From: Candidatus Stahliibacteriota bacterium
Lineage (GTDB): Bacteria > Hydrothermota > UBA3072
Direction of reading: 5' to 3'
Length of the DNA stretch: 31,055 bases
Assembly (NCBI GenBank): GCA_004377355.1
Contig: SOIB01000007.1
Coordinates: 1 to 31,055, forward strand
Below the pieces are notes generated by a model. It saw only the letters and a list, made by a program, of their open reading frames with translations. It did not search any database and was not told the DNA's origin. Position numbers and translations under genes: made by a program. The stretch's first letter is position 1; each line of letters starts with the position of its first letter. Shown piece after piece: positions 3,211-24,469 of this stretch.

Positions 3211-4125
3211 CTATTTTTGCCCTCCCGTTGGGATATTAAGAAGTGGAGTGAGTTTCTGATCAAAGGGAGTAATTATTACAGTATTATTGGGTGAATTAAC
3301 GAGTTGTTGTAGAGTCTTAATATAATACCACTGCAGATAACTGCTTGAAAGGGATTTTGATATAATACGGTTCGCTGCTGATATTCCCTCTGCTTCAAGC
3401 TTTTTCCGCTCCACTTCTCTGCTCTCTTTCTGCAGGATAAACACCATCCTTTCTGCTTCCTGTTTTGATGCCATCTTCTCATCTATTTTTTCTTGAACCA
3501 TTTCCGGCAATTGAACATTCCTCATTAAGACCTTCTCTACTTCAATATTCCTTCCGGTAAGAGCCCTTTTTAAACCCTGCTCGATGGAAATACCTATTTC
3601 CTCTCTTCTCTCTGTATATATGTCAGCTACTTCATAACCAGCGATCATATTCCTGATAACGGTTTTTATAGCAGGTCGGACAATCTTTTCCACATAATTA
3701 GGTCCAATATCACGATAAACTAGTGCTGCTCCTTCGGACTTAAGACGATACCACACTGTCACATCTAGTTTAACCGTGAGACCCTCTGATGTAAGCGCCG
3801 AAATGGCATCGTCTCCTCGAATAATCCCTTCCCTGGCTTTACCACTCATTGTATAACTTTCTGTTCGAACACTCATCTTTTCAATTGAAGCAAAAGGATT
3901 AATCAGGTGGATTCCACTCATCAGAGTTTTCTCCTTGACCCTACCGAAGAGAACAACAACTCCAACTTGCCCGGGACCTACGAGACGAACCATGGAAGCA
4001 ATCAGAAAGATAAAGGACAGAAATAAAATGCCAACGGGGGCTAGCCTGGTTCGTCTCTTAATCTCTGGGGTAAGCCACATCATTATTCCAATTATCAGGG
4101 TTACAATAAATAAAAATATTAACAT
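3211..4125 (-). CDS. SPFH/band-7 (prohibitin/HflC-like) membrane protein
   Basis: N-terminal TM helix followed by a band-7 core (VGPGQVGVVVLFGRV... pattern) and a C-terminal coiled-coil region. Confidence 0.7.
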   Translation of the reverse strand: MLIFLFIVTLIIGIMMWLTPEIKRRTRLAPVGILFLSFIFLIASMVRLVGPGQVGVVVLFGRVKEKTLMSGIHLINPFASIEKMSVRTESYTMSGKAREGIIRGDDAISALTSEGLTVKLDVTVWYRLKSEGAALVYRDIGPNYVEKIVRPAIKTVIRNMIAGYEVADIYTERREEIGISIEQGLKRALTGRNIEVEKVLMRNVQLPEMVQEKIDEKMASKQEAERMVFILQKESREVERKKLEAEGISAANRIISKSLSSSYLQWYYIKTLQQLVNSPNNTVIITPFDQKLTPLLNIPTGGQK

Positions 4126-4338: not shown

Positions 4339-4629
4339 ATGCTATGGTGCATTATATTATTGTTGGTTAGGGTTGAAGGGGAAGAGGTTATTCATAATGA
4401 AGATAAATTTGATGAAGAATGGTGGGAAGCATATATGGAATCACTTTATTCAGATACACTTCCCATTGATTCAACTATAGACACTTCTAAAGTAATTGAT
4501 GCACAGGACAAAGAAGATGACAATAGGAATATCAGGAGAGGGTTTTTTAAATCTGGTATCCAAATTGCAGCTCTTTTTATTTTTCTAATCGTTATATTAG
4601 TTTATATTAGAAGAAGCGTCAGGCTCTAA
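4339..4629 (+). CDS. Small hypothetical membrane protein with an acidic central region and a C-terminal TM helix
   Basis: ORF directly downstream of the strong promoter. Hydrophobic N-terminus, D/E-rich middle, and a C-terminal IQIAALFIFLIVILVYI helix. No recognisable family. Confidence 0.4.
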   Translation: MLWCIILLLVRVEGEEVIHNEDKFDEEWWEAYMESLYSDTLPIDSTIDTSKVIDAQDKEDDNRNIRRGFFKSGIQIAALFIFLIVILVYIRRSVRL

Positions 4630-4647
4630 ATACAGATTTAGAGCCTG
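4620..4647. terminator. Perfect 12-bp stem / 4-nt loop hairpin (CAGGCTCTAAAT-ACAG-ATTTAGAGCCTG) between convergent genes; putative bidirectional terminator
   Basis: Inverted repeat read directly. Overlaps the stop codon of the 4339-4629 ORF and lies 49 nt downstream of the minus-strand gene ending at 4696. There is no strong U-tract on either strand. Confidence 0.5.
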
Positions 4648-4695
4648 ATTACATTACACACAACAAAAAATATTTTCACTTATAAAGAATTACAA

Positions 4696-5070
4696 TCATT
4701 CAATCCAAATTTTTATTTTTTCACCATCCTCATCAATATCAATTATTGTAAAAGGAATATCATACAATTCATCATCCACAGACTTTAATATCTCCTCAAT
4801 ATCGATATCGTATTCCCCCAGTTTCTCACTGGCTTCGGTGGAAAACTTTGATACTAATTTCCCACCCACTTTCATCAATTTTGTAGCAATAACAGTTGGA
4901 ATTTTCACGTTTACCTTCCTCTCACCCCCACTCTCTACCTCTATCCTGAAGAATCTACCCTCCCCTTTATCGGTCTTTTTCTCAATTGTGTCTAAAAGCC
5001 TATACGCCTCATCAGCATTAATCTTTCCCTCTTCGAGCATCTTTAGTATTCGCTCTTTTTCGCCTGTCAC
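4696..5070 (-). CDS. SHOCT-like-motif protein: N-terminal ERILKMLEEGKINADEAYRLL helix plus a small C-terminal beta-rich domain. Fourth gene of the DUF2089/Toastrack operon.
   Basis: Shares its N-terminal ~22-aa motif with the three upstream genes. Overlaps the upstream gene by 4 nt (translational coupling). Confidence 0.55.
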   Translation of the reverse strand: MTGEKERILKMLEEGKINADEAYRLLDTIEKKTDKGEGRFFRIEVESGGERKVNVKIPTVIATKLMKVGGKLVSKFSTEASEKLGEYDIDIEEILKSVDDELYDIPFTIIDIDEDGEKIKIWIE

Positions 5071-5312
5071 ATTTCCTCCATTTCATTCATCGCTTCATTA
5101 AAATCAATCTCCTTATTTTCAAGTTTCTTCAATATCTTTTTAACTTTTTTACCATCCTTTTTTCGCCTCTTTCTCATGTGATCCCATATTATATATAGAC
5201 CAAACACCAGAAGTAGAAATGGCCAATCTCTACCCCAGTTGAAACCACCACCATATAAGTTAAGCAACCATATACCTGCACCAAGTACAAGACAGATTAA
5301 TCCAAATACCAT
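5067..5312 (-). CDS. Small two-TM membrane protein with a basic linker and a C-terminal SHOCT-like helix (KKILKKLENKEIDFNEAMNEM)
   Basis: Two hydrophobic helices (LICLVLGAGIWLL; FLLLVFGLYIIW), then a K/R-rich stretch, then the shared motif at the C-terminus. Confidence 0.5.
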   Translation of the reverse strand: MVFGLICLVLGAGIWLLNLYGGGFNWGRDWPFLLLVFGLYIIWDHMRKRRKKDGKKVKKILKKLENKEIDFNEAMNEMEEM

Positions 5313-5410
5313 TATTCCTCCTTTTTACCACAAAAACATCACCTGCTATCAGCTTTCATCTTATATACACTTCGCATTTTTCATTTTGCATTGAAGCGAA
5401 GCTTCTGTGG

Positions 5411-6100
5411 TTAAATTTCATCTGATTCTTTTTTCTTTTTCAATTCAATAGAAGATAATTTTGCATCAATCTTTACCAACCCTTCATCTTTTCCAACAAC
5501 ACCTTTTACACCTTCATCAGATTCATTCAATCCCAGGTTCTGTGAGATTGAGCCCAAAGAATTTACAATATTAAAACTCATGTTCACTGGATGAGAAAAA
5601 GAAAGAGTAAGACTTCCCATTCTCACATTCGCATCAATATCCAGAGGCTCTTTTACATAAAGTTCAGTATTACTCATCTTGCTTTCCAATTTAAGAGGAA
5701 CATCTAAAATACCATTGAGGTCACCAGCTTTAAGGTTAATATGAAGTGAGGAATTAGCTGGAACATCCACTGTCATTGAACCGAAGATTCCAACTTTAGT
5801 TTTTTCCCCCTCTTCATTTAAAGAAAACCTTCCATCGCCATAGACTCTGAACACAGAATCAGAAGATTCTTTAAGGGTAAGACTTGAGGCATTAACATTA
5901 ATTAAAACTTTATCTGCCTTAAACTCTTCTCTTATTTTTCCGATTTTAGTTCCTTCAAACGAAAAAGCATGCACAATTCTATCCACAAATCCGATCCCAT
6001 CCTTTTCCTTTGATAAAGCTTCAAGCAATCTCACAGCCTCATCAGCAGAGATTTTTCCATTTTCTAACATCCTGAGGATACGCATTTTTTCATCATTCAT
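5411..6100 (-). CDS. Toastrack/DUF4097-like (LiaG/YvlB-like) beta-rich protein with an N-terminal SHOCT-like helix (MRILRMLENGKISADEAVRLLEAL)
   Basis: N-terminal motif followed by ~190 aa of repetitive beta-strand-like sequence (VLINVNASSLTLK..., SLHINLKAGDLNG..., VRMGSLTLSF...). This is typical of DUF4097/Toastrack domains. No TM segment. Confidence 0.5.
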   Translation of the reverse strand: MNDEKMRILRMLENGKISADEAVRLLEALSKEKDGIGFVDRIVHAFSFEGTKIGKIREEFKADKVLINVNASSLTLKESSDSVFRVYGDGRFSLNEEGEKTKVGIFGSMTVDVPANSSLHINLKAGDLNGILDVPLKLESKMSNTELYVKEPLDIDANVRMGSLTLSFSHPVNMSFNIVNSLGSISQNLGLNESDEGVKGVVGKDEGLVKIDAKLSSIELKKKKESDEI

Positions 6101-6464
6101 TCTTATTGCCTCCCTTCTTTTCTAACTTTCTAAGAGCTTCTTCAACGTCTATAAGCCCCATCTCCAATTCAGAGATAATGTCATCCTTTTCACATTCAGA
6201 AGGAGGAAACCCAAGAGCCATCCTTACCTCTTCAAGACGAGCCCTCACAGTTGGATATGATAGATCAAGAATTTCCCCTATCTTTTTAAGATTTCCTCTA
6301 ACCCTTATGAATAGACGGATAAACTCCCATTGCTCTTCTGATACAAGAATGCCTCCCCACTTAAAAGAACCACTAACAATAGCATCACAATCGCTACACT
6401 TAAATTCGGATATTTTTATATCCCCACCACAAAAAGGACAACGTTCTGGTAATTTCATATTCAT
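6093..6464 (-). CDS. DUF2089-type regulator: N-terminal zinc ribbon (CPFCGG...CSDC) plus a sigma-70-region-4-like HTH, with a C-terminal SHOCT-like helix (IISELEMGLIDVEEALRKLEKK)
   Basis: Four Cys in CxxC...CxxC spacing at the N-terminus. HTH-like segment LKKIGEILDLSYPTVRARLEEV. Overlaps the next gene by 8 nt. Confidence 0.55.
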   Translation of the reverse strand: MNMKLPERCPFCGGDIKISEFKCSDCDAIVSGSFKWGGILVSEEQWEFIRLFIRVRGNLKKIGEILDLSYPTVRARLEEVRMALGFPPSECEKDDIISELEMGLIDVEEALRKLEKKGGNKNE

Positions 6465-6499
6465 ATTAATATTTATATATATAATATTAATTTTGTCAA
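6465..6499 (-). promoter_or_regulatory. Promoter of the DUF2089 operon: TTGACA (reverse complement of 6494-6499), 17 nt, ATAAAT (reverse complement of 6471-6476), 6 nt, then ATG. Leaderless arrangement.
   Basis: Read directly on the minus strand: cTTGACAaaattaatattatatatATAAATattaatATG. Confidence 0.5.
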
Positions 6500-6685
6500 G
6501 GTATTAATTAATAAAATTTATTTTTTATTTATATTATTTAAATATTATTAATATTACATTAAATATTATTAAACTTTCTGTATGAGTTTTTTAGTTCAAA
6601 AAATGGGCTATGGAGTTTAAATATTTGATTTCAATAATCAGGTTGTTAATTTTCAGAATTTTAAAAGGATATTATTCTCTATGTC

Positions 6686-6714
6686 TTGACAAAATAATTC
6701 AGCGCACCTAAACT
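6686..6714 (+). promoter_or_regulatory. Divergent promoter for the 6720 gene: TTGACA (6686-6691), 17 nt, TAAACT (6709-6714), 5 nt, then ATG. Leaderless arrangement.
   Basis: Read directly. Confidence 0.45.
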
Positions 6715-6719
6715 TAAGT

Positions 6720-8042
6720 ATGCAATCAATAATTCTATTTTTAACCGCAACGCTATCTGTTTTACTCCCCGAAGGAGTAGATATAAATGAGGAAATAATT
6801 AGAAGGAAAGAGGTTACTCTTCCTTATGGTGTTTTACCATTATATAACGAAGAAAATGGTATCACCTTATCTCTATATTCTATAATAGATACTGTTAAAT
6901 ACATTCAATTTAGTCCTATTGTGCAATATCAAAAAAATAGGTGGGGTTTCACTGTTGCCCCACTTGGACGCAAAGGAGACGCACATATTTATCCAACTCG
7001 AGAGGAATTTGGAGCCTATGCTGACATTTTACGTGGCTCTATATTTTATAGGACCAACAATTTAATAATATCTTTCGGGAAGGATATCTTCTTAATAGGA
7101 AGTTCCTTTGAACATAACCCTCTCCTATCTCCCAATATTCCCTTAAATTATGCACGATTTATTTATACCAATGATAAATTTTCATTTACGCACTTCTTAG
7201 CAAGGCTTGATGACTATACCGGACGAGAGAAGATATGGGCAGGTGGTTCTACAGCTGATACTGCTACTTTCCAGCGATATTTAGGTATACATCGCCTCGA
7301 ATTTAAACCAAGGAAGTGGTTTGCAATTTCTTTCAGTGAAGTAATGCTAATTGGTGGAGAATATTCAGGTTTTCCCTTCGAGCTACTATCCCCTGTTACC
7401 ATCTATTATATAGAACAATTCAATCAGAAAAAAAATGTAAACATACTATGGAATATTGACTCGAAAGCAGTATGGAAAGATTTCCTCTTCTATTTTGACC
7501 TATTTATAGATGACTTTCAGCTTGAGGCGGATCCCTGGAATGAGCCAAATCATATGGGAATATATTTTGGCATACAGAGGATTGACCTTTTTAAAGAAGG
7601 GTCATTACTATTACTCTCATACAACATTATGAGTAGATGGTCTTATAGTAACATTATTGTATGGCAGAGGTATATTGATAAAGATTTCTCATTGGGGACA
7701 CCTCTCGGGAATGATTATGATCGGTTCTATATGCAGGCACTCTATCCAATATCTTCTTTTAAAACCGGATTTGAATTCTCTTTCACGCGTAAAGGAGAGA
7801 ATTCAATTAATAATCCATGGCCAGTTAATACTGATTCCATTGCTACACCAGCGAATCAATTTAACAACACAAATTTCCTATCTGGAACAATTGAAAAAAG
7901 ATTGAGTATTTCCTCCATCCTTAAGTATAGAGACTTATTCACACTAAAAGTTGGATTATATCACATTCAGAATTACCAACATCAAGAGGGCACCACTAAA
8001 ACAGAACCACTACTTGAGCTTAAAATTAAATACCATATATAG
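6720..8042 (+). CDS. Hypothetical secreted, aromatic-rich protein. It is possibly an outer-membrane beta-barrel or a capsule/exopolysaccharide-assembly (Wzi-like) protein.
   Basis: N-terminal signal-peptide-like segment (MQSIILFLTATLSVLL). High Y/W/F content with alternating hydrophobic patterns. No catalytic motif recognised. Confidence 0.35.
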   Translation: MQSIILFLTATLSVLLPEGVDINEEIIRRKEVTLPYGVLPLYNEENGITLSLYSIIDTVKYIQFSPIVQYQKNRWGFTVAPLGRKGDAHIYPTREEFGAYADILRGSIFYRTNNLIISFGKDIFLIGSSFEHNPLLSPNIPLNYARFIYTNDKFSFTHFLARLDDYTGREKIWAGGSTADTATFQRYLGIHRLEFKPRKWFAISFSEVMLIGGEYSGFPFELLSPVTIYYIEQFNQKKNVNILWNIDSKAVWKDFLFYFDLFIDDFQLEADPWNEPNHMGIYFGIQRIDLFKEGSLLLLSYNIMSRWSYSNIIVWQRYIDKDFSLGTPLGNDYDRFYMQALYPISSFKTGFEFSFTRKGENSINNPWPVNTDSIATPANQFNNTNFLSGTIEKRLSISSILKYRDLFTLKVGLYHIQNYQHQEGTTKTEPLLELKIKYHI

Positions 8043-14281: not shown

Positions 14282-15472
14282 ATGGCTCTTGAATATATGT
14301 GGAAGGATGTATTCCAAGGAGTAAGGTTAGGATTTTCTCCCAAGAAAATCTGGGTGGCAGCTAAAGGGCTTCTTATGGGAACAATAGGTTATTCTATCCT
14401 TGCTTACCTTTCATTGATGGCTTCTGGCTGGAATATCCAAAAAATATGGCTGGAATTCAGGTATATCCCGTTTCCATTCTTCCAGGGAAACCTTACATGG
14501 TTTGGATGGATTATATGGGCTATTGCTGGTCTCTGGGTACTATACTTCTACTTCATAACTATGACAGCAATCTCTAAGATAACATATGAGCAATTAAGAG
14601 GAGACGAATTTTACGAGTCTAAAGAAGCCTGGACTTTTGCTCATAAAAACTGGAAGGGAACCTTCCTTTCTCCCATATATCTTATCTTCTTTATTGCCGC
14701 CCTAATATTAACAGGATTGATATTAGGCCTTGTCGGAAGGATACCAACTGTAGGACAAATCCTTATCGGATTATCTGCAGTTCCGATATTCGCCGGGGCA
14801 TTATTTGTTGTATATTTAACAATTGTTGTTGGTGTTATACTAATCAGTGCTCCAGCTATTGTAGCAACTACAGAGAGTGATACCTTTGATACACTCTTTG
14901 AGGGATTCTCACTGATAAACGATCAAACCTGGAGATATATTCTCTGGGAAGTTATCCTTTTGATCACGACTTTTATTGGGATAATTATATTCGCCTGGCT
15001 ATTTAAGTATGCACTATCTTTAACACACAATACACTAATAGTGTGGGCTGGCCCAAGAAACTGGTGGAATATAATGTGGCATAATGCAAACTGGTATTTA
15101 CATATCCCTTGGCTTCCAATCTGGATTGCAAAATGGTATCCAACATTCTTCGTACCCACAGAGTTTATATCTGCCGGCTCAGAAACCCTTGCTCAATATC
15201 CTGGGGCTGCTACAACCTTTGGTGGATTCCTTTTGGGACTTTCCTTCTATATGGTAATATTCATAATCATCGGATACGGAATATCAACTCATGCTGCTGG
15301 TCAAACTTTAATTTACACAATTCTCGTCAAGATAAAAGATGAAAAGGACTTACTGGTGAAAGAAGAGAAATTATTTGAAGCTGAAATCGAGGAGAAAGAA
15401 GAAGAGGTAGAGGTAGGAAAAAAAGAGAAGAAACAAAGAAGAAAAGAAGAAAACAAAGAAGTAAAGCAATAG
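14282..15472 (+). CDS. Hypothetical polytopic membrane protein (about 8-10 TM helices, W/Y-rich loops) with a highly charged K/E-rich low-complexity C-terminal tail
   Basis: Multiple long hydrophobic segments. Tail is KDEKDLLVKEEKLFEAEIEEKEEEVEVGKKEKKQRRKEENKEVKQ. Strong SD (AGGAGG) 4 nt upstream. Confidence 0.5.
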   Translation: MALEYMWKDVFQGVRLGFSPKKIWVAAKGLLMGTIGYSILAYLSLMASGWNIQKIWLEFRYIPFPFFQGNLTWFGWIIWAIAGLWVLYFYFITMTAISKITYEQLRGDEFYESKEAWTFAHKNWKGTFLSPIYLIFFIAALILTGLILGLVGRIPTVGQILIGLSAVPIFAGALFVVYLTIVVGVILISAPAIVATTESDTFDTLFEGFSLINDQTWRYILWEVILLITTFIGIIIFAWLFKYALSLTHNTLIVWAGPRNWWNIMWHNANWYLHIPWLPIWIAKWYPTFFVPTEFISAGSETLAQYPGAATTFGGFLLGLSFYMVIFIIIGYGISTHAAGQTLIYTILVKIKDEKDLLVKEEKLFEAEIEEKEEEVEVGKKEKKQRRKEENKEVKQ

Positions 15473-15608: not shown

Positions 15609-17645
15609 ATTAAAAGTATTATATTCTTTTTCATAATATTATTTCTTTTAATATTTAATTGTGATAGAGGAGAAAAATTCACGTATGAAGGAAATATAGG
15701 GGGAACTTTAATTGTTTCCCTTATGAATGAACCCACCACACTTAACCCTCTTTATCCATCATTTTCTGGTCTTTCCCCTGTTTCAGAAAAAATATTTAAT
15801 CCATTACATGATCAGAAACCAGATGGTAAAGTAAGAACTTGTTTAGCTCAATCATGGGTATATTCAGAGGATCTAAAATCTATTACATATACAATACGAA
15901 AAGATGCAAGTTGGCATGATGGCACACCAGTAACCGCAAAAGACATTGTATTCACTTTTAAACAGATTAAGGACCCCAAGAATAACTCACCAGTCTCTCA
16001 AAGATTGCGATATATTAAAAACGTAAAAGCAATTGGAGAAAGAGAAGTTAGGTTTGTATTTGATAAAGTATATGCAGATGAATTAATCCATTCAAACATA
16101 CTAATCATCCCAAAACATATTGTAGAGAAGGATAAAAATAATCTCCAAATGAGTAACTTCAGTTTCAGCCCAACCGGGAATGGTCCTTACAAGCTTAATG
16201 AATGGAGACAGGGAGAATGGATCGAGTTAGTTGCAAACAATGATTATTTCAGAGGACGACCTCTACTTGATAGAATAGTTTTCTATTTCCCACACTCTTT
16301 GGAAGAACTATTGGATGAAATCAATTTAGGAAATATAGACATAGCATTTGATCTACCTCCAGAGAAATATGACACTATAAAAGGATACAGTACCATAGTA
16401 TCTTCAGGTAGAGCTTATACGTATATTGGCTGGAATCTCAAGCGATTTCAAGATAGAAATTTAAGAAAAGCCTTCAGCATGGCTATTGATCGTGAAGGTA
16501 TTATATCTTCTATACTTAAAGGTTATGGACGTTTATTAAATTGTCCAATAACACATGAGCATTGGGCATTTAACCCTGACATAAAGGGGATCAAACACAA
16601 CGAACAAAAAGCAAAAGAGTTATTAGAAGAACTAGGATATTCAAAGAAAAGCTGGCAACAATACTATCCGGATCTCCGAGTAGAAATTCTGGTAGAAAGT
16701 GGAAATCCCATTCGCAAGGAAGTAGCTTTTTATATTATGTCTGATTTGCGTTCAATAGGGGTTAATACGCTCGTTACGGAACTTAGAGGGTCACAATTGA
16801 TTGATCGTTTATTCAATCGCAATTTTGATGCATATATTCTTGGATGGAGTGTGGACAAAGCCTTTAACCCTCTTCTAATCTGGAGTCCTAACGGTATATA
16901 TAATTTTGTTGGTTATAAAAATAAGAAAGCTCACGATTTAATGAGAAAAGCGCTGTTTTCTCTTGATAGAAAAAAGGCCAAAAAAGCGTGGCATGAATTC
17001 CAGGAAATTATTGCAAAAGATCTTCCTTACACCTTCCTCTATACACCACAGAAGATAACTCTGGTCAAGGAGAATGTAGCAGGAATGAAGCATGAGGATA
17101 AAAGACCAATTTTATCATACCTTGACGAACTGTACTTTAAGAAAGTCCCATCAACTACATTAAATCTTGCATCCCTTGGAACACACTATAAAGAAACACA
17201 AATAGGAAGTGAACAAAGAAAAGCAGAGATAACTACACCACAACAAACACTAACACCTACTGAAGAAATACTGGAAGCAGTAACCTCCACTACTACAATT
17301 GAAGAAGAGAGATCAACAGAAACACCAACTGAAGAAGTAACTACACCTATAGTGGAAAAGAAGGGACCAATTATTCCCCCAATAATAATCTATTATCCTC
17401 CTAAAAGAGATTATCCTGAAAATGCAAGAAAACTTGATGTTCGAGGACAGGTCTTTATAAAAGTTTACATCTCAAAAGAAGGTATAGTTGATAAAGCAGA
17501 TATTGTAAAAGGACTTTTCCCTTCTTGCGATTCAGCAGCTTTATCGGATGCGTATAAATGTAGATTTGATCCTGCAACTCAGGATGGAGAACCTGTAGCG
17601 GATTCACAGACCCTTCCTTTCCGTTTCCCGCCCGGAGGGTGGTAG
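15609..17645 (+). CDS. Family-5 (OppA/DppA-like) ABC substrate-binding lipoprotein fused through a T/E/P-rich linker to a C-terminal TonB_C domain. The true N-terminus likely lies upstream of the track ATG at 15723, starting at a non-canonical ATT at 15609.
   Basis: SBP_bac_5 core throughout. The in-frame upstream sequence encodes a lipoprotein-type signal peptide plus the hallmark GGTLIVSLMNEPTTLNPL motif, and has no ATG/GTG/TTG. An ATT lies 6 nt after a perfect GGGAGG SD (15597-15602). The C-terminus is PIIPPIIIYYPP plus YPENARKLDVRGQVFIKVYISKEGIVDKADIVKG...PFRFP, a TonB_C pattern. Confidence 0.6.
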   Translation: MKSIIFFFIILFLLIFNCDRGEKFTYEGNIGGTLIVSLMNEPTTLNPLYPSFSGLSPVSEKIFNPLHDQKPDGKVRTCLAQSWVYSEDLKSITYTIRKDASWHDGTPVTAKDIVFTFKQIKDPKNNSPVSQRLRYIKNVKAIGEREVRFVFDKVYADELIHSNILIIPKHIVEKDKNNLQMSNFSFSPTGNGPYKLNEWRQGEWIELVANNDYFRGRPLLDRIVFYFPHSLEELLDEINLGNIDIAFDLPPEKYDTIKGYSTIVSSGRAYTYIGWNLKRFQDRNLRKAFSMAIDREGIISSILKGYGRLLNCPITHEHWAFNPDIKGIKHNEQKAKELLEELGYSKKSWQQYYPDLRVEILVESGNPIRKEVAFYIMSDLRSIGVNTLVTELRGSQLIDRLFNRNFDAYILGWSVDKAFNPLLIWSPNGIYNFVGYKNKKAHDLMRKALFSLDRKKAKKAWHEFQEIIAKDLPYTFLYTPQKITLVKENVAGMKHEDKRPILSYLDELYFKKVPSTTLNLASLGTHYKETQIGSEQRKAEITTPQQTLTPTEEILEAVTSTTTIEEERSTETPTEEVTTPIVEKKGPIIPPIIIYYPPKRDYPENARKLDVRGQVFIKVYISKEGIVDKADIVKGLFPSCDSAALSDAYKCRFDPATQDGEPVADSQTLPFRFPPGGW

Positions 17646-19143: not shown

Positions 19144-20419
19144 AGGTGCTCACCTTCTTGATCCAAAGAATAACGTAGACGAAATTGGTAATATTTATAT
19201 TGAAAATGGTATAGTTATAGGTAAATCATCACGTAAGACGCAAGATGTGAAAATAGATGCCAGTGGTCTATATCTAATACCTGGATTAGTAGATATTCAC
19301 TCACATTTTCGTGAGCCAGGCAAAGAAGACGCTGAAACAATAGAAAGTGGATCTCGTGCCGCTCTTAAAGGAGGGTATACAACGGTTTGTGTAATGCCAA
19401 ATACAGAGCCACCGATTGATAATGAAGGAGTAGCAAGATTCATAAAGGAAAAAGCAATAGAGAATAAAAAATGTCGAATTTTTCCAGTTGGAACTATAAC
19501 TAAAGGAAGAGAAGGTAGGGAACTATCAGAGATGGGACATCTCTATGAAGCTGGTTGTGTGGCTTTCAGCGATGATGGTAACTGTGTAATGAACCCTGCA
19601 GTGCTACGAAGAGCTCTGGAATATTCCCTTTTCTTAGAAGTCCCTATTATAGAGCATCCTGAAGATATGTTATTATCCAAAAATGGTCAAATAAATGAAG
19701 GTATAATATCAACAAAACTCGGATTAAAAGGTATACCTGATATATCTGAAGCATCTATAGTAGCAAGAGATATACTTCTTTCCAAATTTACAGAGGGGAG
19801 ACTTCATCTTGCTCATATTTCATCAGAGGAGTCTGTAAGTATAATAAAATATGGAAAGAGTAAGAGTATTAGGGTTACGGCAGAAGTTACACCACATCAT
19901 CTTCTCTTAACTGAAGAAGAAGTTTTAAGTTTTGACACCAATAAAAAGATGAAACCACCACTTAGAACTAAATCAGATAGAGATGCCCTGCAGAAAGCGT
20001 TGAAAGAAGGAATTATTGATTCAGTAGCTACAGACCATGCTCCACATCCTGATTATGAAAAAGAACTCGAGTACTCTCTTGCTCCTTTTGGCGTAATTGG
20101 TTTGGAAACTGCATTTAGTGCATTATACACCAAACTTATCCTTCCCGGCACCTTAAGTTTTAAGCAATTAATTCTATGTATGACAGATAAACCTGCACAG
20201 ATACTCGCTCTTCCGGTTGGCGAGATAAAAAAAGGAGGAACTGCAGATTTTACCCTTCTTGACCTTGGGAGCGAATGGGAGGTTGACCCAGATAATTTTG
20301 AATCAAAATCAAAAAATTCTCCTTTCATTGGATGGAAACTAAAAGGAGTCATAAAAGCAACTATAGTTAATGGCTTTCTACCTTATAGAGAAGGTGAATT
20401 CCTGAGGGAGGAAAAGTGA
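19127..20419 (+). CDS. pyrC: Dihydroorotase (class I, about 430 aa)
   Basis: Metal-binding DIHSHFREPG and DHAPH motifs. Overlaps pyrB by 17 nt. Confidence 0.8.
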   Translation: MKIAIKGAHLLDPKNNVDEIGNIYIENGIVIGKSSRKTQDVKIDASGLYLIPGLVDIHSHFREPGKEDAETIESGSRAALKGGYTTVCVMPNTEPPIDNEGVARFIKEKAIENKKCRIFPVGTITKGREGRELSEMGHLYEAGCVAFSDDGNCVMNPAVLRRALEYSLFLEVPIIEHPEDMLLSKNGQINEGIISTKLGLKGIPDISEASIVARDILLSKFTEGRLHLAHISSEESVSIIKYGKSKSIRVTAEVTPHHLLLTEEEVLSFDTNKKMKPPLRTKSDRDALQKALKEGIIDSVATDHAPHPDYEKELEYSLAPFGVIGLETAFSALYTKLILPGTLSFKQLILCMTDKPAQILALPVGEIKKGGTADFTLLDLGSEWEVDPDNFESKSKNSPFIGWKLKGVIKATIVNGFLPYREGEFLREEK

Positions 20420-22920
20420 CTGCTTCGTTTGATATCTTCGATTTAGAAACAGCTGCAGTCATGGGAAGTAAATTTCTCTTCTCCTTAAAGGAAGGAGCCG
20501 GTGAGAGTGAACTCTACGAAACATCAAAACAGACACTATCTCGTTATTTTGAACTCAGAGGCTTAGATACAAAGAAATTGGACTTCTTCTTAGAACACAA
20601 ATGTAAGTTTATTATGGAACTAAATAAAGAAGAAAGAGCTTACCTCCGTGATATGTTTACTCGTCTTGAAGAAAATAAAATAAATAAAGAAGACATCAAA
20701 TTTTTTAATAGCCTAACTGAAAATATCTTAGAAAAGGGTTCTCACTATTTTCCTCTACTATTATCTTTAATAATGAAAATTTTTCCATCTGAATTGGTAA
20801 GTGGGGTAAAGAAATCCTTCGAAGTAGGGAAAAGATTAAGCGGATTGCTAAATGATATTTTAAAAAGTAAAGAATTGGATAATTTCACCATTTTGTTTTT
20901 AAAAGAACCTCTTCCAATTGGAATTCCACTCACAAACACCTCATTAGATGACTTCAAAAAATTTCTTACTCCTTATGGTTTTACTCCCGACCTATTAAAA
21001 CAAATTCATAATATTTTAAGAGCTAATTTTACCCAAAGAGAGAGTGGAGATATAATTTCTCTTCTTAAGAACACAGATATATCGGGTTTGGATGATTTAC
21101 GTAACTTTAACTTTTATAGCTTTTTCATACCAGAAGATGATACCTTAGTAAGAATTGCAAAAATAGTATCTGATAAAGCATCCAAAGTGAAGCAAAGATT
21201 AATGCAGAAAGATATGGAACTTGATATGAAAGATGTAAAAGTCCGAGAAGAAACCCACCAACTCCTTCGGAAAAATGTAGAAAAATTACAATCACTAATA
21301 GATGTGAAAAAGGGTAATCTTCAAGAGATTTTGAGTAATACTCAGGAACAATTTACTGCGCTTGAAAAAGCGATAAAACTACATATAAGACATATCCAGG
21401 CGCATGAACATGCTTCTAAATCGCTAAAAAAAGCCATCGATGAGAATAAGATACTACTCAGCATAAATCTAGAAGATATAAAGAATTTCTTTCCCACTCC
21501 TCCCCTCTGGGAAATAGAAAGACTAATAAAGGAATTCTGGCATGAATTACCATACCTCGAAATTATTGATCCTGCATGTGAAAGAAAAATAATTAAGCTT
21601 CTAAAAAAAGAAGAACGGTTATCCTCTGATAAAAAATTATTTTTACAGCTCGCACATACGGAGAGAAGAGGATTCTCTCCTGATATCGAAAGAGTAATCT
21701 TAAATTATAGAAAGGTCTTAGAAGAAATCTTTGAACCTTTATACATCCGTGAAGTAATAAATCGTATGATTGAAATCTGGCCTCCTAACGTTGATTTTGG
21801 AAATCCTAAATCAATAATTGTTACAACTAGAAAACTCCATCTTGCAGGTCTGGATTTACTACCAAAAGGACACTTTTACAGATTCGGAATTAAAGGTAAT
21901 ATAGAGCCCACTATTGATAGAAAGCTGTTAGAAAAAAGAGAACAAATATCAACCTTTCTAAGAAAAGGATTCTCAACCCTTGTTTCAGTTTTAATATATG
22001 ATATTCGTGGCTCGAGTTTTATGGCACATCGCCTTCGGAATGCTAAGAAGGAAAGGTCTATTCGTAATAAATTCCAATCTACTATGCTTGACACAGCCAC
22101 AAGGGGTTCGTCGTTTATACTCAAAGATACAGGTGATGGAGGAATCTTGTGGTTTGGTGGCAATTCTAACAAACTCTACAGGAATATCTATAAGTGTCGG
22201 GAGAGTGAATCAGGGGCAATCTTACGTTCTTCAACTGCTTTTGAAGATGAATTCATACTAACGCCACACCCAAAGAGCGCAGAGATGGCTATTAATGCAG
22301 CATTAAATTTAGTGCAAACGGCCGAGGATTTCGTCACAGAAAATTATATGAACTACAGAGATTGGTTTGAAGAAATAACAGAGAAAGAAGTCTTTCACGA
22401 TGGCATTACCTACGCGTTACTACCTCCTAAATTCAAATCGTTATTCAGGCTTGGTATAGGGATAGCAAGTGGACAACCTGGAAAAGACATTATATTCTCC
22501 CCTAATGCATTTGGGGATCCCGATCTTACGGGAAATATTGTGGACGAATCCGCTCTATTTTCATCCGGGAGGAGTCCTGAACGTTCTGTAATTCTAATAG
22601 ACCATTGTACACTAATAAATCTACTACTCAACTCAGATCAATATCTATTGATTCTTCCCCTAACTAAGGAAGACTCTGACGAGGTAGTTATTGATAAACT
22701 CCTTACCATTCTTAAAAGAGAAGAATCTGAACAGGAATTCATATTCGATGATTTTACTGTATCACCTGTGGGTCTCTATTATATTGACTATAAAGATAAG
22801 GAAAAGAGTATAGAGTTCAAACTTTGGAAGAATTTAAAATTGGAATTCAATGATAAAGGGGACTTATCTAGCAAAAGGGGTCGTGTAAAAATACTCTATG
22901 AAGTCTTAGTTAAGGAATAG
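20416..22920 (+). CDS. Large hypothetical protein (834 aa). It has a ~500-aa alpha-helical N-terminal region of unknown function plus a divergent class-III nucleotidyl-cyclase (CHD/palm) domain around aa 520-715.
   Basis: The C-terminal region matches cyclase hallmarks. LVSVLIYDIRGSSFMA matches vtvlFaDIvGFTal with the metal Asp. ILKDTGDGGILWFG matches iKtiGDaymavfG with the second Asp. AEMAINAALNL and FRLGIGIASGQPG...GNIVDESALFSSG match rvGIhtG...GdtVNlAsRl, but the canonical Arg is missing. GTG start overlaps the pyrC stop (GTGA). Confidence 0.45.
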   Translation: MTASFDIFDLETAAVMGSKFLFSLKEGAGESELYETSKQTLSRYFELRGLDTKKLDFFLEHKCKFIMELNKEERAYLRDMFTRLEENKINKEDIKFFNSLTENILEKGSHYFPLLLSLIMKIFPSELVSGVKKSFEVGKRLSGLLNDILKSKELDNFTILFLKEPLPIGIPLTNTSLDDFKKFLTPYGFTPDLLKQIHNILRANFTQRESGDIISLLKNTDISGLDDLRNFNFYSFFIPEDDTLVRIAKIVSDKASKVKQRLMQKDMELDMKDVKVREETHQLLRKNVEKLQSLIDVKKGNLQEILSNTQEQFTALEKAIKLHIRHIQAHEHASKSLKKAIDENKILLSINLEDIKNFFPTPPLWEIERLIKEFWHELPYLEIIDPACERKIIKLLKKEERLSSDKKLFLQLAHTERRGFSPDIERVILNYRKVLEEIFEPLYIREVINRMIEIWPPNVDFGNPKSIIVTTRKLHLAGLDLLPKGHFYRFGIKGNIEPTIDRKLLEKREQISTFLRKGFSTLVSVLIYDIRGSSFMAHRLRNAKKERSIRNKFQSTMLDTATRGSSFILKDTGDGGILWFGGNSNKLYRNIYKCRESESGAILRSSTAFEDEFILTPHPKSAEMAINAALNLVQTAEDFVTENYMNYRDWFEEITEKEVFHDGITYALLPPKFKSLFRLGIGIASGQPGKDIIFSPNAFGDPDLTGNIVDESALFSSGRSPERSVILIDHCTLINLLLNSDQYLLILPLTKEDSDEVVIDKLLTILKREESEQEFIFDDFTVSPVGLYYIDYKDKEKSIEFKLWKNLKLEFNDKGDLSSKRGRVKILYEVLVKE

Positions 22921-22921
22921 A

Positions 22922-24469
22922 ATGAAAAATAGAATAAAAGAATTCGAAGAAATAATAAAAGCAATTAACTCAGAAAAAATTAATATCGATGAAGTTCTTC
23001 GCCTAATAATGGATAATATATCAAAATTAATTAGCGCTAAAGCGTGGTCACTTCTCCTGTTAGATAAAAAAAATAGAGCACTTGTTTTTAAGGTAGTTAT
23101 TGGCGAAAAAAATGAGGAATTAACTGGAAAAAGGATGCCAATGGACAAAGGAGTGGTGGGATGGGTAGTGAAAAATAAAAAGTCAGTAATTGTATCTGAA
23201 CCTTATCAAGATAAGCGATTTTTCAAAGATATTGACAAAAATACAGGTTTTATAACAGAGAATATTCTAGCAATTCCTTTAATCAATAAAGGCAGGATAC
23301 TTGGAGTCATTGAAGCAATTAACAAAGTTGATGGAACTAATTTCGACCAAAAAGATTTGAAATCAGTTTGCAATTTTGCTGAACATGCAGCTATTGCTCT
23401 TGAAAATGCAAGTCTTGTCCAGAGCTTACAAAATAAAGTGAGATATTTAACACTTATTTCAAATATCAATAAAAATATAACCTCTATTCTTGACCTTGAA
23501 ACTCTACTAAAGAAGAGCACAAAATTAATCCAGAAGACATTTGATTACTATTATGTTGGAATAGGACTTTTTGAAAATGATAAAATTATTTTAAAGGGAT
23601 TCTCTGCTGCTAAAAATATTAAGCCTGTCCGGACCTTAATAAATAAAGGCGAGGGACTTGTCGGAAAAGTTATGAATGATATGAAAAGGATTATAATTCT
23701 GGATTCCGAAAAAGAACTGGATTTTTGTGAAGGTATTAAAGGTGTCAAGAGCGAGATGGTAATTCCAATCAAAAGAGAAACTAATTTTTTGGGTATTATT
23801 GATATTGGCTCACCAGAGAAATATGCTTTTTCAGTAGAAGAAGCAGATATCGTAAGTGAAGTATCACACCAATTAGCTATTGCTGTAGAGAATGCGAAAC
23901 TTTACCAGAAAATAAGACTTGCAGCAATTACTGATGATCTAACAGGTTTATATAATTCAAGATTTTGCAATAAAAAACTACCTGGAATTGTTAATAAATG
24001 GCGAAAGGAAGGTAAAGTTGGCTCCCTAGTATTTATGGATATTGATCATTTTAAAAATATAAACGATTCTTACAACCATTTAATAGGAAGTAAATTATTA
24101 CATTTGGTGGCAAGAAGAATAAAGGAAGTATTGGATGAAGGTAAAATAGGAATAAGATATGGAGGCGATGAATATATAATCCTAATGGAAGATATGGAAT
24201 TAGAAAAGGCAATTGATTTTACCAAAGAAATTAAAAATCTAATTTCGTCGCGACCATATACAATTGGTGATAATTCTGGTGAAATAAAATGCAACGTAAA
24301 AGCCAGCTTTGGAATAGCAAGTTTCCCAGATGTAACAACAGACCCTCAGGAATTACTCCGTCTCGCAGACCTTGCAATGTATTATGTAAAAGCCAACGGT
24401 AGGGATAATATAGCTTATATGGACAAAAACGCTGATATTCAACTTCTTAATGAGCAAACAAATCCTTAA
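22922..24469 (+). CDS. GAF-GAF-GGDEF diguanylate cyclase (active-site variant GGDEY)
   Basis: Two GAF-like modules (..GVVGWVVKNKKSVIV..; ..GEGLVGKVMNDMKRIIIL..). GGDEF domain with DDLTGLYNSRF, DIDHFKNIND and RYGGDEYIILM. Starts 1 nt after the upstream stop. Confidence 0.8.
   Translation: MKNRIKEFEEIIKAINSEKINIDEVLRLIMDNISKLISAKAWSLLLLDKKNRALVFKVVIGEKNEELTGKRMPMDKGVVGWVVKNKKSVIVSEPYQDKRFFKDIDKNTGFITENILAIPLINKGRILGVIEAINKVDGTNFDQKDLKSVCNFAEHAAIALENASLVQSLQNKVRYLTLISNINKNITSILDLETLLKKSTKLIQKTFDYYYVGIGLFENDKIILKGFSAAKNIKPVRTLINKGEGLVGKVMNDMKRIIILDSEKELDFCEGIKGVKSEMVIPIKRETNFLGIIDIGSPEKYAFSVEEADIVSEVSHQLAIAVENAKLYQKIRLAAITDDLTGLYNSRFCNKKLPGIVNKWRKEGKVGSLVFMDIDHFKNINDSYNHLIGSKLLHLVARRIKEVLDEGKIGIRYGGDEYIILMEDMELEKAIDFTKEIKNLISSRPYTIGDNSGEIKCNVKASFGIASFPDVTTDPQELLRLADLAMYYVKANGRDNIAYMDKNADIQLLNEQTNP

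Follow-up and report, generated by a model that had tools for sequence, protein, structure and literature searches.

Why should four proteins of different kinds, encoded side by side in one bacterial operon, each carry a copy of the same short helical domain? This question is raised by an operon on the minus strand of contig SOIB01000007.1 from Candidatus Stahliibacteriota bacterium, which we analysed within a stretch of 31,055 nucleotides (nt), hereafter the window. All coordinates refer to the window as a whole, and loci of relatives are numbered from L001 onward. The operon consists of g1 (6464..6093, 123 amino acids (aa)), encoding a DUF2089 zinc-ribbon/helix-turn-helix (HTH) protein with a SHOCT-like domain; g2 (6100..5411, 229 aa), encoding a SHOCT-like domain followed by a predicted Toastrack domain; g3 (5312..5067, 81 aa), encoding a LiaI/LiaF-type hairpin of two transmembrane (TM) segments with a SHOCT-like domain; and g4 (5070..4696, 124 aa, GTG start), encoding a SHOCT-like domain joined to an orphan alpha/beta domain. 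We consider the chances about even that the operon is centred on the DUF2089 regulator, which would be controlled by the docking of one SHOCT-like tag to another and coupled to the membrane.

The tag shared by the four proteins

The pattern phi-xx-phi-[EK]-x-[GKN]-x-[IL]-xxx-[EN]-A-x-xx-phi was found once in each protein and in register, at residue 97 of g1, residue 9 of g2, residue 61 of g3 and residue 9 of g4. It marks a two-helix domain of approximately 25 residues, the Pfam family PF22746 (SHOCT-like_DUF2089-C). With a cut-off of 27 bits, this family was assigned to g2 (residues 3-33, 45.9 bits, E = 3e-12) and g4 (residues 4-32, 34.2 bits, E = 2e-8). The Pfam outcome that the sequence-only reading had anticipated was obtained for DUF2089 in g1 and for the SHOCT-like domain in g2 and g4, but PF22746 scored 12.2 bits in g1 and the Pfam scan gave no match to it in g3. 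A hidden Markov model (HMM) of the g2/g4-type N-termini was searched against six-frame open reading frames (ORFs) of at least 35 aa, with E-values calculated over 5723 ORFs from the window and the loci. Four window ORFs were matched, namely g2, g4 and the C-termini of g3 and g1, the last two weakly (domain i-E-values of 2.3 and 7.0, respectively).

When alignments of orthologues were compared with the g2/g4 profile by hhalign, the C-terminus of g3 was matched at 95.8% with a score of 36.6 and that of g1 at 94.9% with a score of 34.7. Column shuffles (150) gave a mean score of 9, with maxima of 22 for g3 and 17.9 for g1. Because the observed scores lie far above those of the shuffles, the tag is a real shared domain and not the generic low-complexity coiled coil that would have spoken against the earlier proposal. 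Pfam matches to PF22746 were weak or faint among the orthologues of g1 and g3, and clearer copies of both tags are present in the distant operons L087, L088 and L083. In L088 they are plainly visible, both in the anchor (KEKILKELEEGKINVEEALKKLKEVG) and in the regulator (VSEILDKLEKGEITADEAIKLLKEK). Pattern, profile-profile scores and distant orthologues together uphold the claim that all four genes carry the same motif in the positions proposed. The placement does not vary: g1 and g3 carry the tag at the C-terminus, g2 and g4 at the N-terminus.

The copies are not equally similar to one another. Across 12 operons, the mean BLOSUM62 score between the tags of g2 and g4 was 71.7, compared to 75-78 within a family and 37-43 for pairs that include g1 or g3. 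Judged by these scores, the g2 and g4 tags form one near-identical subtype, and the g1 and g3 tags form two other, more divergent classes. The tag helices are amphipathic, and they are bihelical in AlphaFold2 (AF2) models. Their cores are net neutral to acidic (means from -2.2 to +0.9, with -2.2 for g1) and contain almost no F, W or Y.

The identification of g1 as a DUF2089 zinc-ribbon and HTH protein was confirmed. Both Pfam models passed their cut-offs, PF22747 for the zinc ribbon with 34.3 bits (cut-off 27.6) and PF09862 for the DUF2089 HTH at residues 42-86 with 68.3 bits (cut-off 33.4). Among 10 orthologues with identities down to 33%, the zinc-ribbon cysteines C9, C12, C23 and C26 are invariant. 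In the C-terminal SHOCT-like domain (approximately residues 93-118), L100, G103 and I105 are likewise invariant in this set, and the following D and E-A are conserved in at least 90%. The HTH is weakly similar to GerE and sigma-r4. A structure search for a solved DUF2089 protein returned none, just weak GerE/LysR HTH matches. We treat g1 as a predicted zinc-ribbon and HTH DNA-binding protein, DNA binding being assumed from the HTH. Experimental characterisation of DUF2089 was not found in the papers searched. Short DUF2089 proteins of 89 and 98 aa have been listed in leaderless-bacteriocin clusters of Enterococcus/Bacillus, beside small membrane proteins (PMC7332713, PMC10707071); by their length, these may lack the SHOCT-like tail.

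In g2, the tag is followed by a disordered linker (residues 34-48) and a beta-helix (approximately residues 50-222). The assignment of this beta-helix as a Toastrack domain had been expected to come from a direct Pfam match to DUF4097. That match was not obtained, since Pfam gave no DUF4097 match to g2 at E <= 1 and NCBIfam did not assign g2 to Toastrack. The assignment itself stood on other grounds. A g2 family profile was searched against 1.8 billion representative proteins to collect full-length relatives, and DUF4097 (PF13349) was matched by 25 of 35 distant full-length homologues (best E 6e-21). In the AF2 model, which has a predicted local distance difference test (pLDDT) value of 90.2, two helices at the N-terminus are joined to a beta-helix by a disordered linker. 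A Foldseek search of the PDB with this model returned 4QRK as the top match (E = 1e-8, probability 1.00), followed by 3LYC, 4OPW and 4YGU. Among these, 4QRK and 4OPW are Toastrack reference structures in Table S2 of Ravi et al. 2024 (PMC11237479). By modelled fold and transitive homology, rather than by a direct Pfam match, g2 is thus predicted to be a Toastrack scaffold. It has neither a signal peptide nor a TM segment and is therefore predicted to be cytoplasmic.

The TM segments of g3 span approximately residues 2-19 and 31-44, with the motif NWGRDWP in the loop. Two families scored below the cut-off of 27, PF22570 (LiaF-TM) with 25.8 bits and PF18917 with 16 bits. Orthologues pass the PF18917 cut-off, with 38 bits in L060 and precomputed PF18917 assignments in L083 and L088, and the hairpin motif W-x-L-N...NWGRDWP is kept among them. 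The description of g3 as a two-TM anchor of the LiaI/LiaF type is supported by these matches. A polybasic juxtamembrane stretch follows the second TM segment, and according to the positive-inside rule the C-terminal tail, including the SHOCT-like domain at approximately residues 57-81, would therefore lie in the cytoplasm.

Apart from its tag, g4 consists of an orphan alpha/beta domain (g4c, approximately residues 38-124), in which P58 is invariant and a C-terminal Glu is nearly so. The g4c domain was not assigned to any Pfam family. The AF2 model of g4 (pLDDT 70.6) shows a beta-hairpin, four helices and a second beta-hairpin, so that its earlier description as a small beta protein has to be abandoned; a search for fold matches with this model found none. 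We also considered g4c as a degenerate Toastrack rung, given one rung-like hairpin and a Toastrack HMM match with E about 0.015 on a g4 homologue. This candidate was rejected, as the hhalign probability was 0.1%.

Recurrence of the gene set

To which extent do these genes travel together? Two surveys were made, one starting from DUF2089 (80 loci of species-representative genomes) and one anchored on g4 (80 metagenome loci); in the latter, loci with at least 1.5 kb on both sides of g4 were counted as complete (n=39). The order g1-g2-g3-g4 is found in WOR-3/Stahlbacteria loci, for example L005 at 67% identity, and the order g1-g4-g3-g2 in L088 (a 111-kb metagenome contig), L105 and L108. Among 73 mostly Deinococcota loci (L010-L082), which include Trueperaceae, Thermus, Meiothermus and Deinococcus, about 50 have the order g2-g4-g1, 46 of them exactly so. 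One Coprothermobacterota locus has the order g1-g4-g3. WOR-3, Deinococcota, Coprothermobacterota and many metagenome contigs thus share the set, its genes being arranged in no fewer than four orders. Loss of synteny in related genomes had been named as an outcome that would count against a four-gene module; synteny was found to hold in related and distant genomes alike.

The genes do not recur equally often. Of the 39 complete g4-anchored loci, 38 have DUF2089 next to g4, 13 contain Toastrack and 14 the anchor, and all four genes are present in 10. Because DUF2089 and g4 are adjacent in 38 of these loci, we regard them as the constant core of the module. The sequence-only reading therefore gave too much weight to the Toastrack protein and the anchor: it is g4 that constantly accompanies the regulator, and each of the other two is an add-on seen in about a third of the complete loci.

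Within the window, the genes of the operon are closely packed. The overlaps between g1 and g2 (8 nt) and between g3 and g4 (4 nt) fit the claim that all four genes are translationally coupled, which is only partly right because 98 nt separate g2 from g3. This spacer (5313-5410, minus strand) ends in the Shine-Dalgarno sequence of g3, AAGGAGG, and is not present in the orthologous loci L001, L004 and L005, where g2 and g3 abut. A possible long-range stem in the spacer (CCACAGAAGCUUCGC ... GUGAUGUUUUUGUGG) gave a marginal RNA fold z of -1.9; with this value and its absence from the relatives compared, the spacer was dropped as a candidate structured element. A terminator-like hairpin with a 13-bp stem and a weak T-run was found by a consensus scan at 4648..4619 on the minus strand, 48 nt past the g4 stop. 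It probably marks the end of the operon and is probably common to a convergent ORF of 96 aa (4339-4629, plus strand).

Promoters and neighbouring genes

The operon promoter (6465..6499, minus strand) consists of TTGACA (6499-6494), 16 nt, TATAAA (6477-6472) and 7 nt before the ATG at 6464. No Shine-Dalgarno sequence precedes g1; g2, g3 and g4 each have one. As there is no Shine-Dalgarno sequence and the promoter adjoins the ATG, the g1 mRNA is predicted to be leaderless. L001, L004 and L005 have the same two hexamers at the same distance from the ATG, and an equivalent geometry, CTTGACAA-17-TATATT-6-ATG, is present at L006-L009 (53-55% protein identity). The leaderless promoter geometry proposed for the DUF2089 gene is thus conserved in orthologous loci. 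The element CTTGACAA(A) is kept at the distant g1 promoters of L006-L009 and L088. Our consensus scan had missed the g1 promoter owing to the T6 rule of the scanner. A sigma-70-type -35/-10 pair 5-9 nt before the start was found for six window genes (starts at 4339, 6464, 6720, 13100, 13710 and 26168). This geometry is not special to the operon, since five other genes have it, and this WOR-3 lineage may commonly produce leaderless mRNAs.

Divergent from g1 lies a gene at 6720-8042 (plus strand), which had been described as encoding a secreted protein. This description was borne out, as the product is a Wzi-like outer-membrane protein (PF14052, E = 1.3e-12). Its promoter, TTGACA-17-TAAACT-5-ATG, is also of the leaderless type. 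An identical 11-mer, CTTGACAAAAT, is found in the -35 region of either divergent promoter, the two copies forming a perfect inverted repeat (6490-6500 / 6685-6695), and CTTGACAAA occurs at these two -35 sites alone in the window. The shared CTTGACAAAAT may be a control site through which the g1 operon and the Wzi-like gene are co-regulated, and we offer it as a lead only. Sigma region 4, by which -35 boxes are recognised, is weakly similar to the DUF2089 HTH.

Two exact copies of AATAATATTTAA (6538-6549 and 6559-6570, minus strand) lie 21 nt apart, approximately 75-105 nt upstream of the g1 start. The sequence-only reading had suggested the repeats at 6538-6573 as an autoregulatory operator. 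The copies are indeed exact, but the pair is conserved only in part in an alignment of four genomes, and the spacer in which it lies is approximately 90% A+T. Matches to AATAATATTTAA with at most one mismatch number 5 in the window, with 2.07 expected, and a repeat search of the window reported no direct-repeat family.

The adjacency of g1 and the Wzi-like gene is kept in L001, L004 and L091-L093. In L006-L008 (53-55% g1 identity), a gene of approximately 690 aa is inserted between g1 and g2; the copy in L006 (4788-6851) matches DUF5916, and a C-terminal fragment resembling it is present in L087 (2-730). Predicted outer-membrane proteins were thus seen repeatedly beside g1 (L006-L008, L087 and the Wzi-like protein of the window). 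On the other side of the operon, a separate transcription unit at 3211..4125 (minus strand) encodes an SPFH/Band-7 protein (PF01145, E = 1.5e-34), in which the HMM and Pfam scans found no SHOCT-like domain. In L001, L004 and L091-L093, the module is followed by a Band-7 gene, and in nine unrelated metagenome loci (L115, L122, L123, L125, L127, L129, L131, L136 and L142) such a gene directly precedes it, in the order Band7-g1-g4. In Deinococcota, the trio g2-g4-g1 is commonly followed by a gene of approximately 385 aa, which is dnaJ in L014 (1426-2574); this may point to a connection with proteostasis or heat stress.

The 96-aa ORF at 4339-4629 is located in the interval separating g4 from the Band-7 gene. 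Its product combines an acidic N-terminal portion with a TM helix at the C-terminus and gave zero matches in a Pfam scan; a promoter of near-perfect leaderless geometry (TTGACA-17-TACAAT-6-ATG) precedes the ORF. Given its conservation in L091 (E = 1e-59) and, in a 116-aa form, in L001 and L092, it is probably a real gene. Farther away, a 640-aa protein (15723-17645, plus strand) combines SBP_bac_5 with a C-terminal TonB_C domain, an unusual fusion. Two plus-strand ORFs, 20416-22920 (834 aa) and 14282-15472 (396 aa), matched no Pfam family at E <= 1e-5, and the former is directly followed by a gene for a GAF-GGDEF diguanylate cyclase (22922-24469).

Proposed tag docking, its rivals and known systems

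How could a shared tag control a DUF2089 regulator? By its domains, the operon falls within the partner repertoire of the Psp/Lia systems. In the mechanism that we propose, the SHOCT-like hairpins would be docking tags that pair with each other, for example an N-type and a C-type hairpin joining into a four-helix bundle. The ever-present g4 would bind the tail of the regulator and set its activity. The Toastrack protein g2, which carries the same tag subtype, could rival g4 in binding the tail of either the regulator or the anchor g3, and through such partner switching transcription would respond to the state of the cytoplasmic membrane. The likely targets would be the leaderless operon itself and possibly the divergent Wzi-like gene with its same extended -35 box. 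Envelope or membrane stress is the suggested signal because of the Lia-type domains and the SPFH/Band-7, outer-membrane-protein and Deinococcota dnaJ neighbours. A precedent by analogy for Toastrack as an interaction hub is YvlB of B. subtilis, a protein of SHOCT-like and Toastrack domains, for which two-hybrid contacts with PspA, LiaH and its operon partners have been described (PMC9239133). In a more specific form, the tag would be a heterotypic docking tag with compatibility classes (N-terminal, g2/g4; C-terminal, g1 and g3), and a one-component zinc-ribbon regulator would switch partners among g4, Toastrack and anchor; this form we put forward tentatively, as rather doubtful.

Several points weigh against control by tag docking. 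The sole experiment on a classical SHOCT domain observed no self-oligomerisation (PMC3581485), in a different subfamily from PF22746 and with homotypic binding alone tested. Ravi et al. 2024 predict membrane anchoring, not binding between tags (PMC11237479). PspA, a sigma/anti-sigma pair and a two-component system were not found by Pfam among the 25 window ORFs of at least 150 aa, two of which (14282-15472 and 20416-22920) have no Pfam match, and no operator was identified for g1. The stress signal is deduced solely from the Lia-type domains and the neighbours. Finally, neither the anchor nor Toastrack was detected in over half of the complete g4-anchored loci, some anchors possibly having been missed by the narrow g3 HMM used in that survey. 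The membrane link is on this count not universal, and the proposal that the membrane protein sequesters the regulator does not work as a general mechanism, because many loci have no anchor.

Instead of each other, the hairpins might bind the membrane, as independent peripheral anchors whose co-localisation assembles a complex on the Toastrack surface. We think this unlikely, in spite of the published prediction for the SHOCT-like class, the amphipathic and bihelical nature of the tag helices and the common occurrence of membrane-associated neighbours (Band-7, LiaI/LiaF-TM). The tag cores are unlike cationic membrane-targeting helices in their charge and in their near lack of F, W and Y. Moreover, a peripheral anchor would be redundant on the integral membrane protein g3, which is tagged too. 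A DNA-binding regulator held at the membrane would need a release mechanism, which this explanation does not supply, and g3 itself, as stated above, goes undetected in more than half of the complete loci.

The four proteins could also be clients of one hub, the tag binding a third party encoded outside the operon, such as a PspA/ESCRT-III-like protein, an SPFH/Band-7 oligomer, RNA polymerase or nucleic acid. The classical SHOCT domain, for which non-self binding was proposed after self-association was not seen, is most often fused to Band-7 (PMC3581485), and Band-7 recurs beside the module; YvlB binds PspA and LiaH, both of which are encoded elsewhere (PMC9239133). However, mutual binding is the simpler explanation of the operonic linkage, the complementary placement and the distinct subtypes of the tags. 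The Band-7 protein of the window is without the SHOCT-like domain, and PspA was not among the scanned ORFs, which leaves such a hub, in our estimate, quite improbable. That the likeness is a matter of chance or composition among short charged amphipathic helices, adjacent without a functional link, is scarcely credible. In its favour, g1 and g3 fall below the PF22746 threshold in this genome. It is refuted by the shuffle comparison, by motif residues that stay invariant in orthologues at 33% identity, and by the same gene types and tag placement in distant lineages with other gene orders.

If docking between tags were confirmed, SHOCT-like, DUF2089 and g4c would receive their first defined function and the coupling would be widespread; a signalling route free of kinases and sigma factors would also be added to the Psp/Lia envelope stress responses. 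Functional studies of DUF2089, SHOCT-like domains or g4c were not found in the literature searched, and what is known of Toastrack function comes from the YvlB interaction data and from LiaX/LiaF genetics. The families are widespread, and with one tag on each component the role of the SHOCT-like domain becomes directly testable. As the trio is also present in Thermus, Meiothermus and the Deinococcus group, some of them cultured, experiments are not tied to the uncultured WOR-3. Among the PADLOC defence-system models, g3 weakly matched 'control protein' (E = 0.005) and there were no other matches, and a reading as a defence or toxin-antitoxin system was set aside for lack of PADLOC support.

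Among known proteins, YvlB (yvlABCD of B. subtilis) and LiaX (liaXYZ of Enterococcus) combine SHOCT-like and Toastrack domains as g2 does. They are encoded with small membrane proteins and are implicated in envelope stress signalling and protein-protein interaction. In contrast to g2, they are partnered with PspC-domain and holin-like membrane proteins and with LiaFSR, and not with a DUF2089 regulator. LiaX, with an NCBIfam model length of 512, is also far larger and reportedly surface-exposed and released; here, the NCBIfam LiaX model gave weak matches that cover only residues 3-34 in g2 and 4-37 in g4. In the Lia system (liaIH-liaGFSR), LiaI/LiaF-type TM and Toastrack domains (the LiaF C-terminus and LiaG) similarly control a transcription factor upon membrane perturbation. 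However, LiaF fuses the TM and Toastrack parts and acts on a histidine kinase and response regulator, and the effector is the PspA-like LiaH. In the operon studied here, the TM and Toastrack parts are separate proteins, joined at most by the tag, and the regulator is a one-component zinc-ribbon HTH protein. The same Pfam scan of the window that lacked PspA gave no histidine kinase, response regulator or PspF either, and since PspA and two-component parts were not found, the operon is not a member of the Lia/Psp systems. The classical SHOCT domain (PF09851; Eberhardt et al. 2013) is likewise short, bihelical, amphipathic and terminal, with many fusions, often to Band-7/SPFH. It belongs to another Pfam family than PF22746 and is mainly C-terminal, and the tested example did not oligomerise, whereas the tag described here is present on every member of the operon.

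The closest description is that of Ravi et al. 2024 (PMC11237479). There, DUF2089 is split into zinc ribbon, HTH and SHOCT-like parts, the same three-part architecture as in g1. The contexts 'DUF2089 -> SHOCT-like+X' and SHOCT-like+Toastrack (YvlB) are listed, and Lia-like signalling is proposed. The adjacent SHOCT-like+X gene has its counterpart here, X probably being g4c; Toastrack and LiaI-LiaF-TM are associated in both cases, and the role, from membrane signals to transcription, is the same. The suggestion that the module is uncharacterised therefore held in part: no DUF2089 experiment was found in the papers searched, but PF22746, the DUF2089/SHOCT-like+X pair and the SHOCT-like+Toastrack combination had already been described. 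The four-gene context of that study differs from our operon, which includes neither an extracytoplasmic function (ECF) sigma factor nor a zf-HC2/HEAT anti-sigma receptor; in L001, an ECF sigma gene lies approximately 5 kb off, on the other strand and outside the cluster. Toastrack is membrane-anchored there, whereas here it is soluble with a SHOCT-like N-terminus, and the anchor is a separate 81-aa two-TM protein with its own SHOCT-like tail. What apparently goes beyond the consulted text of Ravi et al. is the quartet with a separate tagged two-TM anchor, the presence of the tag on every member with fixed N- or C-terminal placement and subtypes, and the core formed by DUF2089 and g4.

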